64,000 bases of DNA from the NCBI GenBank assembly GCA_963782055.1, contig CAWAIF010000003.1:2432001-2496000 (forward strand). The letters run 5' to 3'. Source of the DNA: an uncultured delta proteobacterium. Its GTDB lineage: Bacteria; Myxococcota_A; Polyangia; Polyangiales; Polyangiaceae. The notes under the pieces are model-generated. The model saw nothing but the letters and a program-made list of their open reading frames with translations. It had not been told where the DNA came from and ran no database searches. This document shows, piece by piece, positions 53,119-55,085 of the stretch. Position 1 is the first letter of the stretch. The number at the start of each line of letters is the position of its first letter. The translations under genes were made by a program, and so were the position numbers.

Positions 53119-53121
53119 CTG

Positions 53122-53265
53122 GCGCCCGCGCCCGCCCCCGCGGTCGCGCTCGCGCCCGCCCCCGCGCCCGCGCCCGCGCTCGCGCCCGCCCCCGCGCCCG
53201 CGCCCGCCCCCGCGCTCGCGCTCGCGCTCGCGCCCGCGCCCGCCCCCGCGCTCGCGCTCGCGCTC
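53122..53265. repeat. Low-complexity hexamer array (GCGCCC/GCGCTC/GCCCCC)
   Basis: Direct reading. Confidence 0.9.
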
Positions 53266-53295
53266 TCCCGCATTCCCGAAGGTGAAGGAGACAAG

Positions 53296-53528
53296 GTGAA
53301 GGGAAGGGGAAAGGGAGAGGGGGAAGGGAGAGGGGGAAGGGAGAGGGGAAAGGGAGAGGGGGAAGGGAGAGGGGAAAGGGAGAGGGGGAAGGGAGAGGGG
53401 GAAGGGAGAGGGGGAAGGGAGAGGGGAAAGGGAGAGGGGAAAGGGAGAGGGGAAGGGAGAGGGGAAGGGAGAGGGGAAGGGGAGAGGGGAAAGGGAGAGG
53501 GGAAAGGGAGAGGGGAAAGGGAGAGGGG
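53296..53528. repeat. Purine-only tandem array (GGGAGAGGGG(G/A)AA, 12-13-bp unit)
   Basis: About 230 bp composed essentially only of G and A on the + strand. Confidence 0.9.
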
Positions 53529-53529
53529 C

Positions 53530-53732
53530 TCTCGCTCGGGGGAGGGGATGGTCCCGCCGTGCTCGGAGTCCGCAAGGCCGGGGCCGTCCTCGCCGTGCTC
53601 GGGCGCTACGCGCCCTGCGCGCGGCTCCGGGCGGTGCTCGCTGGCGCTCGCAGCCTTGCGGACTCCTGCGCGCGGCGGGTCGGGCCATGGGCCCCGCGCG
53701 CGGTGCGCGGGCGTTTGCCAAAGGAGCTCGTG
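53530..53732 (+). promoter_or_regulatory. Conserved structured leader upstream of four-helix-bundle gene 1
   Basis: 14-bp perfect stem GGAGTCCGCAAGGC (53565-78) / GCCTTGCGGACTCC (53653-66); homologous to the reverse complement of 54752-54916. Confidence 0.6.
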
Positions 53733-54059
53733 ATGAATCTTCGAATCTACCCCGTGGTGCTGGAGCTGGTGCGGGAGGTCGGGCCGCGGCTGCGGGAGCT
53801 CGCGCGGCACGATCCGGATCTCGCGCGGCAGTGCCGCAGGGCGCTGGCGAGCGTGCCGCTCAACGTGGCGGAGGGCGCGTTCGCTCGGGGGCGGAACAAG
53901 CAGGCGCGCTACCACACCGCGCTCGGCTCGCTGCGCGAGACGCAGGCGTGCTTCGAGGTCGCCGAGGCGCTCGGCTACATGCCGGCGCTGGACGCGGGGC
54001 TTCGAGCGCGCTTCCGGCAGGTGCTCGGCACGCTGGTGCGGCTGGCCGGCGCGCACTGA
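53733..54059 (+). CDS. Four-helix bundle protein (23S rRNA-IVP / Avd-like family), copy 1
   Basis: AAGGAG RBS; LRIYP...DLARQCRRALASVPLNVAEG.....ARY..ALGSLRET. Confidence 0.88.
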   Translation: MNLRIYPVVLELVREVGPRLRELARHDPDLARQCRRALASVPLNVAEGAFARGRNKQARYHTALGSLRETQACFEVAEALGYMPALDAGLRARFRQVLGTLVRLAGAH

Positions 54060-54427
54060 GAGCGTGAGCAAGAATTGCTCACGCTTCCGAATCGCGCGGT
54101 GAAGCCGCGCGCCGCGTCGGTGGGGACCCCGAAAAACCGCGTTTTTCGGGTCGGGGCGGCGCGTGCCGCCCCGAGATGACAAGGCAAGAGCGTGAGCGGA
54201 AGGATTTCTGCTCACGCTCTGACCCGACGCCGCGGTCTCCGGCAGGCTTCAACCGCCCCGCCGGAGACCGCCCGCATGCTCCGCGATCCTGGCACCCCCA
54301 CTCCTTCTCCCTCCACCTTGTCCCACCCCCTTCTCCCTCCCCCCTCCCCATTCGCGCCCGCGCCCGCGCCCGTCCCCCCGGATCGGCAACGTCGCCGATC
54401 TTTCGGCAACGTTGCCGATCGCGCGCC
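54060..54427. repeat. Hairpin-dense spacer between the convergent genes
   Basis: Stems at 54061-85, 54128-50, 54151-74, 54187-220, 54232-71 and 54381-420. Confidence 0.75.
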
Positions 54428-54751
54428 TCAGCGCGCCCCGACGAGGCGCACCAGCGTGCCGAGCACGTGATCCACGCGATCGCGCAGCCCGTCCGGGAGT
54501 TCCTGCAAGTAGCCGAGCGCCGTGGCCACCTCGAAGCAAGCCAGCACCTCCCGGAGCGAGCCGAGGGCGTTGTGGTAGCGCGCCCTGCGGTTTCGCCCCT
54601 GCGAGTACATCCCCTCGGCCACGTTGAGCGGTGCGCTCGCCAGCGCGCGCCGGCACTGCCGCGCGAGATCCGGATCATGCCGCTCCAGCTCTCGCACCAG
54701 AGGTGCTAGCGCCCGCACGAGCTCCAGCAGCACAGGATAGATTCGCAACAT
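54428..54751 (-). CDS. Four-helix bundle protein, copy 2
   Basis: GAGGAG RBS; MLRIYPVLLELVR...DLARQCRRALASAPLNVAEG...ALGSLREV. Confidence 0.88.
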   Translation of the reverse strand: MLRIYPVLLELVRALAPLVRELERHDPDLARQCRRALASAPLNVAEGMYSQGRNRRARYHNALGSLREVLACFEVATALGYLQELPDGLRDRVDHVLGTLVRLVGAR

Positions 54752-54916
54752 CGTCGACTCCTCGCATGCGCCCGCGCACCGTGCGCGGGGGCCCCCGCCC
54801 AAGCCCGCCGCGCGCAGGAGTCCGCAAGGCTGCGAGCGCCAGCGAGCACGGCGAGGCCGGCCCCGGCCTTGCGGACTCCGAGCACGGCGGGACGATGACC
54901 TACCCCCGAGCGATGC
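54752..54916 (-). promoter_or_regulatory. Conserved structured leader upstream of four-helix-bundle gene 2
   Basis: Same 14-bp stem at 54817-30 / 54866-79. Confidence 0.6.
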
Positions 54917-54951
54917 CCTTCCCACACGTGTCAGCGATGTCCTGTCCTACG

Positions 54952-55085
54952 CCGCCCGCGCCCGCCCTCGCGCCGCGCCCGCCCTCGCGCCGCGCCCGCC
55001 CTCGCGCCCGCGCTCGCCCTCGCGCCCGCGCTCGCCCTCGCGCCCGCGCTCGCCCTCGCGCCCGCGCTCGCCCCGCCCCCCCCCG
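54952..55085. repeat. Low-complexity array with CGCGCCCGCGCTCGCCCT 18-mers
   Basis: Direct reading, about 4 near-perfect units plus degenerate ones. Confidence 0.85.

Follow-up and report, generated by a model that had tools for sequence, protein, structure and literature searches.

Two small convergent genes in the genome of an uncultured delta proteobacterium carry almost the same structured non-coding leader in front of clearly diverged proteins. They lie in a 64,000-nt stretch of DNA, referred to here as the window, and raise the question of what kind of unit a leader and its gene form together and what the leader does. The original prediction took them for a candidate RNA-protein cassette or mobile unit; we followed this up across the genome, its relatives and copies of the leader found elsewhere.

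The convergent pair and its leaders

The open reading frames lie at 53733-54059 on the + strand (copy 1, subfamily A, 108 aa) and at 54428-54751 on the - strand (copy 2, subfamily B, 107 aa), and their products are 73% identical, in line with the diverged ~108-aa paralogs first described. By HMM, both proteins exceed the cut-offs of PF05635 (45.8 and 42.3 bits; cut-off 33.8 bits) and TIGR02436 (46.4 and 44.6 bits; cut-off 24 bits). An AlphaFold2 model of the subfamily B protein (54428..54751) has four helices (pLDDT 95.8) and matched Xcc0516 (2GSC; TM 0.75-0.83, E 4e-4), BT_0352 (2RLD) and, less strongly, Avd (TM 0.71 to 4DWL, E 0.18; TM 0.71-0.73 over 4DWL and 8UB7), so the proposed relation to Avd is borne out as an Avd-like fold in a predicted model. 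By analogy to Avd, the four-helix protein would most likely bind the nucleic acid of its own element.

The left boundary of the pair is a hexamer tract of GCGCCC/GCGCTC-type units (53119..53268) that begins one base past the stop of the upstream aminotransferase-like gene, and a purine-rich tract of ~13-nt units (53294..53527) lies directly 5′ of leader 1. The leader opens with its conserved GCTCGG end motif (53530..53541, + strand). On the - strand follow a predicted -10 element (GACCAT, 53548..53553); the far (left) hairpin arm (53553..53577), with a 16-nt spacer holding the invariant GTGCTCG internal loop and a predicted -35 element (TTGCGG, 53570-53575); a variable inner branch of mini-hairpins (53578..53653), whose TNC loops on the + strand are GNA on the - strand; and the near (right) arm (53654..53679), which would be the template strand of a folded promoter. 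Counting 12 nt from -12 places the predicted start at about 53691, and the ribosome site (GGAG, + strand) is at 53723-53726. In copy 2, the near arm (54804..54829), the far arm (54867..54896), the predicted -35 (TTGCGG, 54869-54874) and the predicted -10 (GACGAT, 54891-54896) lie on the + strand, the predicted start falls at about 54792, and a second hexamer tract (54950..55075), direct relative to the left one and thus in the same + strand orientation, bounds the pair on the right. Hairpins also follow the genes: one immediately 3′ of the copy 1 stop (54060..54087, + strand), a related one at 54188-54220, and a double-palindrome hairpin 3′ of the copy 2 stop (54380..54424, - strand) that is common to several other copies. 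The spacer further contains a palindromic dispersed repeat (54106..54183) that is separate from the cassette, has 10 near-full and 5 partial further copies in the genome, and is multi-copy in genome G004 too.

The identical leader blocks and the perfect 14-bp stem noted at the outset are present (stem arms 53565-53578 and 53653-53666). An alignment of the leaders that begins at the -10 box and includes the whole right arm has 2 mismatches in 93 bases, whereas the ORFs agree at only 34 of 53 four-fold sites. The 39-nt difference between the leaders also exists, and the block missing from copy 2 sits in the inner branch at 53578..53653; what did not hold was its reading as an insertion in copy 1, because 12 of the 18 genome copies carry that hairpin and a deletion in copy 2 is the better reading. 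Copy 1 is a mosaic, with a subfamily-A gene behind a stem variant otherwise seen with subfamily B: the leaders of its nearest ORF relatives (9-10 differences over 147 nt) differ at 10 of 56 core sites, and copy 2 differs from copy 1 at 30 of 147 ORF sites and 1 of 56 leader core sites. Given this mosaic, the near-identity of the two window leaders is, as judged from these site counts, partly a product of recombination besides selection; on the proposed inversion of the spacer, the mosaic leader shows only that cassette copies recombine. No Rfam family matched the window leaders at gathering level.

The immediate neighbours of the pair are the aminotransferase-like gene and Uma2. The pair had been placed at the edge of a polysaccharide locus, a tie that we rejected since the neighbours of the other genome copies, read by eye, are unrelated.

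Copies, distribution and mobility of the cassette

The genome (7.58 Mb, 97% complete) contains 21 four-helix gene loci by tblastn, several of them broken, and 18 full leader-plus-gene copies, two of which are the window pair. A profile built from the 18 leaders and searched over the genome returned the same 18 and two half-leaders, and nothing more. A descriptor scan gave 31 matches, namely the same 18, each 5′ of a four-helix gene, and 13 others, which are repeats of another family with the same internal loop and without promoter boxes. This other family, with its GTGCTCG/CTSCG internal loop but no -35/-10, appears to be a ~175-nt dispersed repeat that has more than 25 genome copies and often adjoins cassettes (e.g., G000:C3 about 2574975-2575155, L232:2475-2655). 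Cassette copies are dispersed along the 7.0-Mb contig and all sit among protein genes, with no rRNA match around the window pair, and the intact ORFs (n = 13) have a median pN of 0.12 and pS of 0.38 over 78 pairs.

A search of 41 genomes found the four-helix gene in 19, among them all 6 of the genus, and the nearest named records are mostly Polyangiaceae MAGs, which suggests that the host is one as well. The expected linkage of leader and gene was found at the 18 loci and in relatives, and a strict leader pattern matched 6 of 201 genomes of the phylum, all of the same order (reversed control, 0). The protein gave one weak match among 72,556 plasmids and none among 50,697 phages.

Tail-to-tail arrangement is the norm of the family: among the 66 matches listed, same-genus gene matches form 18 convergent pairs, no divergent and no tandem ones, and a single tandem duplicate of the cassette occurs in this genome. 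Since one pair is itself duplicated here as well, it is doubtful that the unit landed twice at this locus, as had been proposed. The locus is a tail-to-tail pair of a repeated cassette made up of hexamer tract, hairpin and Avd-like gene, and a plain local duplication is ruled out by the 18 full copies, the covariation of the leader stem and the empty sites described below. At three sites the convergent partner belongs to a third, distant four-helix subfamily with a different leader (G000:C3:2533447, 3700636 and C2:147162; GGGGTC tract), each converging on a standard cassette or half-leader. The distant partner genes L072, L073, L076, L089, L019 and L021 have a simple long hairpin leader that buries the ribosome site, a different design from the hairpin studied here. 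We also observed a segmental duplication of three genes plus a frameshifted cassette gene (G000:C3:3733879-3737487 and 6180014-6183814), and DUF559-like genes (by eye) adjoining two cassettes (G000:C3:1820057 and 2267558), one of which converges on the cassette gene.

Hexamer tracts accompany the cassette closely. On the main contig 27 of 37 period-6 intergenic tracts lie within 1 kb of a cassette, which ties most of the intergenic hexamer tracts of this genome to one element; only 36 of 5395 predicted genes (own gene caller) have such a tract 200-700 nt upstream, and 88 of 119 four-helix gene matches with enough flank have one upstream. Of 16 pairs compared, 12 have direct tracts and none has inverted ones; the relation is ambiguous in 1, and in 3 the two tracts differ. 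A proposed adenine-only (DGR-like) variation of the tract units was dropped on inspection, as G positions vary too.

We compared six filled sites (one in this genome, five in sister genomes) with 24 syntenic stretches, two of which were dropped for a differing left neighbour. Gene, motif and long tract are all missing from the remaining 22. Inspected by eye, these divide into 13 tight junctions and 9 stretches that contain another gene; a 20-nt intergenic tract in one of them is a possible scar. As each site is filled in one genome only, insertion would be the parsimonious direction, and insertion into existing microsatellites is ruled out at the examined sites, where the empty sites have no long tract. 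No target duplication or conserved junction was seen by eye at the six filled sites, for which the empty-site genomes are only about 70-88% alike, and the window's own site has no syntenic counterpart in five sister genomes. Gene, leader and tracts are gained or lost as a block, as a mobile unit would be, and the cassette is very probably such a unit.

Two further kinds of locus contain tracts without intact cassettes. At G000:C3:4157200-4157770 (L235), hexamer tracts flank a back-to-back fusion of two outer leader ends from which both genes and the inner arms are missing; such a MITE-like remnant is what internal deletion of a pair would leave. Cassette-free hexamer tracts (G000:C3:3186606-3187083, 925002-925330, 6480234-6480417 and 1468472-1469086), some of them inverted pairs forming long palindromes, are possible excision scars.

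No transposase travels with the cassette, and no enzyme that inserts it in trans was found. Searches for Y1 transposases gave 0 PF01797 matches in this 97% complete genome, with 6 of 14 controls positive. The genome has one IS110 transposase, near which the descriptor scan found no motif. At G000:C3:6184363-6187934, an IS91-like transposase, a tyrosine recombinase (both by eye) and a reverse transcriptase follow one cassette.

The leader hairpin in cassettes and insertion sequences

Leaders were compared in an alignment anchored on the invariant core, gap-free in both arms for 80 of 109 gene matches; the column counts exclude the remaining 29, which lack an anchorable leader and comprise broken or truncated copies, a variant in G008 with a bulge, and members of distant subfamilies whose leaders are different. 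The resulting set comprises 74 distinct leaders from 12 genomes, numbered so that the first base of the -10 hexamer is -12 and the '-35' hexamer spans -34 to -29. Read on the opposite strand to the gene, the far arm carries a TTGAC-like hexamer, a 16-nt spacer and xAxxxT; A-11 is present in 72 of 74 leaders, and so is T-7 (72 of 74). The near arm is longer by one base, so that the spacing on the would-be template strand is 17 nt, and xAxxxT at 16-18 nt in the direction of the gene occurs in 0 of 83 leaders. Watson-Crick pairing is present in 69 of 74 leaders at -12 and in none at -11, and it also ends at -12 in four divergent leaders that lack the internal loop and have a spacer of 17 nt. Sigma-70 prefers a fork junction of this kind, double-stranded up to -12 and with the non-template strand unpaired from -11 onward. 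The window copies combine a weak -35 (TTGCGG) with the 16-nt far-arm spacer. The predicted start lies 21-52 nt 5′ of the ATG in 87 of 88 leaders, and a ribosome site is present in 83 of 88.

The stem covaries. Across 52 leaders, 94.9% of the cells of the main 24-pair helix are paired, with two-sided changes in 14 of the 24 pairs; over 28 counted pairs, 233 cells changed on both sides, which none of 500 shuffles reached, and two of the four covariation count measures were matched by 29 and 53 of 500 shuffles, the sequences being related. The whole-structure score was likewise reached by 0 of 500 shuffles, with rows that are kin. Stem covariation and block mobility together support the earlier proposal that leader and ORF are a discrete unit under structural selection. 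The notion of an RNA-protein cassette survives in part: the unit is structured, but the signatures of its leader are those of DNA rather than RNA, and the leader is not private to these genes.

The triloops carry one such signature. Counted on the coding strand, inner triloops on stems of at least 4 are TNC, and hence GNA on the template strand, in 106 and GNA in 7 of 165 cases. GNA is reported to be the only triloop class that forms DNA mini-hairpins, with GAA the most stable (PMC13037366). Folding energy and wobble pairs point elsewhere in the cassette set: in ViennaRNA the template strand was more stable in only 8 of 74 leaders (RNA) or 26 of 74 (DNA), so that the coding strand is favoured; cassette leaders alone show no wobble bias (8 coding-strand G·T vs 5 A·C among 28 cluster representatives); and a coding-strand U·G could extend the helix at -11 (41 of 52 leaders) and is fixed at -19 (46 of 52).

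These last observations suit a rival explanation, the RNA-protein cassette first proposed, in which the far arm would be an ordinary promoter of double-stranded DNA that fires outward into the tract, while the hairpin would act in cis within a read-through mRNA, bound by the four-helix protein. Conservation of A-11/T-7 and of the TTGAC-like hexamer fits a normal promoter, and A-11/T-7 is predicted by an outward-facing double-stranded promoter as well as by single-strand use. The greater folding stability of the coding strand and its recurrent U·G positions also count in favour, and Avd is reported to bind an RNA stem-loop with flipped-out bases (10.1101/2023.10.23.563531). This explanation leaves the GNA loops on the other strand unaccounted for, as well as the end of pairing at -12, which recurred in every set of copies that we compared.

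We collected held-out copies with a pattern that imposed the inner core only, and no -10, outer stem or gene. It recovered at least 120 metagenome loci and 5 from a viral collection, with 124 distinct copies among the matches listed. Among these listed matches, a four-helix gene lies downstream of 3 of 107 copies with 200 nt of downstream sequence, and a hexamer tract at 1 of 113. The promoter-like signature is nonetheless kept: among the matches listed, A-11 and T-7 each occur in 110 of 119 copies with flanks, and pairing is found in 106 of 119 at -12 and 24 of 119 at -11. Over the 12 free stem columns of the listed matches, G·T pairs fall on the template strand (as top-strand A·C) 114 times vs 10 times on the top, coding strand, or 51 vs 6 after clustering to 56. 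Distinct triloop hairpins in the listed matches number 32 TNC, 1 GNA and 17 other, and the closer match to TTGACA is on the near arm in 31 and on the far arm in 1. Among the 56 clusters of listed matches, xAxxxT occurs at this offset in 44 and at any of 12 neighbouring offsets in at most 3.

The outward promoter with an RNA element thus also leaves unexplained the template-strand G·T excess and the better -35 on the near arm, and 104 of 107 held-out copies among the matches listed have no four-helix gene downstream; we regard it as unlikely. We prefer the reading that the hairpin functions on the template strand, in which it probably folds as DNA.

A Pfam scan of one open stretch per side of the held-out loci (112 and 101 stretches) showed where many of these copies reside. 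Among the matches listed, 46 of 124 loci have a transposase-family match beside them, from IS110, IS21, IS3 or ISL3: IS110 genes end before the motif in the same sense in 22 cases and converge on it in 5, IS21 istB is in the same sense in 1 and converging in 9, and IS3 and ISL3 account for 4 and 2. The signature in the listed matches is unchanged in both orientations to the transposase. The motif lies within the element ends of a Bradyrhizobium IS110 (NZ_CP126014), where it comes directly 3′ of the transposase gene, and inside two near-identical copies of an ISL3-like element (family named by eye), and no Rfam covariance model matched the motif in 20 held-out loci. In two preprints, IS110 elements are reported to excise one strand or copy out single-stranded (10.64898/2026.08.31.748434, 10.1101/2025.10.25.684509), which gives a reason for such a signal in an insertion-sequence end. 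In IS110 elements L099, L110, L113, L118, L205 and L216:2600-2950, a conserved ~300-nt non-coding stretch extends from the motif to the right end; it may be the bridge RNA region, a candidate transcript of a single-strand promoter.

Occurrence in unrelated insertion-sequence families and in both orientations would also be expected if the hairpin were a site on single-stranded DNA that a transposase, recombinase or primase recognises, or a small repeat homing into insertion sequences and cassettes, with promoter-like bases that are incidental or vestigial. RNA polymerase does not read the part of the spacer in which the invariant internal loop (GTGCTCG opposite CTSCG) lies, and the 13 further genome repeats have that loop without -35/-10. 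Such a site does not account for the position of A-11 and T-7, which keep a single fixed distance outside the stem in 44 of 56 independent clusters among the matches listed, nor for their retention in variants that lack the internal loop, and we consider it quite improbable.

A non-autonomous retroelement fares slightly worse, and we take it to be very improbable. Here an Avd-like protein would recruit a host reverse transcriptase (RT), and template-strand cDNA would fold into a promoter that primes the second strand. The Avd fold (TM 0.71 to 4DWL) fits, the folded strand is the one that a cDNA would be, and the genome has 13 RT matches, with four cassette sites less than 10 kb from one (by eye). 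An RT occurs in 11 of 19 genomes with the gene vs 11 of 22 without, so an RT partner of the cassette gene was rejected for want of association across genomes; moreover, cassettes occur without any RT match at E 1e-10 in G005 (98% complete) and G019 (100%), and no RT adjoins the window pair, the nearest match being about 210 kb away. The motif, among the matches listed, is found mostly in DNA transposons, and tail-to-tail pairs move as a block, neither of which suits a retroelement.

A proposed single-strand promoter and known systems

Having weighed these alternatives, we return to the template-strand reading. We consider it reasonably likely, from the signatures set out above, that the folded template strand is read by RNA polymerase. 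When single-stranded, the template strand would fold on itself, its far arm providing the non-template -35/-10 and its near arm serving as template, with the duplex open from -11; a promoter folded in this way would face the gene across the near arm. Transcription by the host's sigma-70 RNA polymerase would begin about 40 nt 5′ of the ATG, and the transcript could yield a burst of four-helix protein and, like the Frpo transcripts of the F plasmid, prime synthesis of the second strand; both expression and priming would occur only while the template strand is free. A tail-to-tail pair would offer one working promoter whichever strand is single. At its weakest step, the scheme would have the direct tracts serve as element ends, allowing excision with a lone tract left behind, and would have insertion depend on an enzyme acting in trans. 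The cassette likely moves through a single-stranded DNA stage.

We therefore see a fair chance, somewhat better than even and drawn from sequence comparison, that the leader is a Frpo-like single-strand promoter/primer signal common to insertion sequences and an enzyme-less, Avd-like cassette. A broader proposal is more tentative, and we hold it somewhat less probable than its opposite: that at least four insertion-sequence families and the cassette share one unrecognised portable single-strand promoter with which host RNA polymerase primes copy-out second strands and expresses cargo, the cassette being a new class of mobile element whose tail-to-tail pairing lets it fire from either strand and which carries its own hexamer tracts into the chromosome. 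We found no description of the cassette, or of the motif in insertion-sequence ends, in a literature search that covered mainly open-access work, so that an earlier mention is possible; the supplement of PMC12672017 contained no matching text. If the reading is right, a single-strand promoter in chromosomal insertion sequences could explain how copy-out intermediates gain their second strand, and the large orphan PF05635 family would have its first expression rule in this lineage, being made only from single-stranded DNA.

Single-strand promoters have been described for conjugative plasmids and single-stranded replicons. In filamentous-phage minus-strand origins and the ssoA of rolling-circle plasmids, priming by RNA polymerase takes place on single-stranded DNA folded so that the -35 is paired and the -10 open. 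Unlike these, the present motif has no Rep gene or phage context and lies 5′ of a small gene or in an insertion-sequence end.

The closest comparison is with Frpo/ssi of the F and IncI1 leading regions, where a long template-strand hairpin directly 5′ of a gene is reported to rebuild -35/-10 (PMC9849209, PMC11541004, PMC12672017); Frpo transcripts can also prime the second strand, according to a further report (10.64898/2026.01.09.698686). Like Frpo/ssi, the cassette has a stem-loop directly upstream of its gene, with a covarying 24-pair helix and template-strand signatures, though not folding energy, and its predicted fold rebuilds a paired TTGAC-like -35 with A-11/T-7 at one offset. Unlike Frpo/ssi, the motif occurs in chromosomal cassettes and insertion-sequence ends and not in a conjugative leading region; its stem is shorter, with an invariant internal loop and GNA-tipped branches, and its promoter activity is a prediction. 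The F-plasmid Frpo, folded and scanned as a control, was not a clean pass, with no xAxxxT -10 called and hairpins without GNA-tipped branches; by eye, its far arm has a TGGAC-type hexamer.

The protein shares PF05635/TIGR02436 membership, by HMM and fold, with Xcc0516 (2GSC), BT_0352 (2RLD) and the 23S rRNA intervening-sequence ORFs; unlike the latter, the cassette lies outside rRNA genes, in 18 dispersed copies with their own leader and tracts. Homology of the four-helix family to Avd is noted in PMC10053308, and the cassette protein has the fold of DGR Avd (TM 0.71-0.73 to 4DWL and 8UB7), with the differences that identity is 10-12%, that no reverse transcriptase is adjacent and that no RT association is seen across genomes. 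IS110, IS21, IS3 and ISL3 copy-out elements have the same hairpin, there 3′ of the last transposase gene, whereas the cassette has no transposase and no visible target duplication. Unlike IS200/IS605 or REP/RAYT (HUH) elements, the cassette genome has no Y1 transposase (PF01797, 0 matches). Set beside these systems, the cassette is real, mobile and, as far as searched, undescribed; it is moderately likely to work like a Frpo-type promoter, and by its location it is not a member of the plasmid family.
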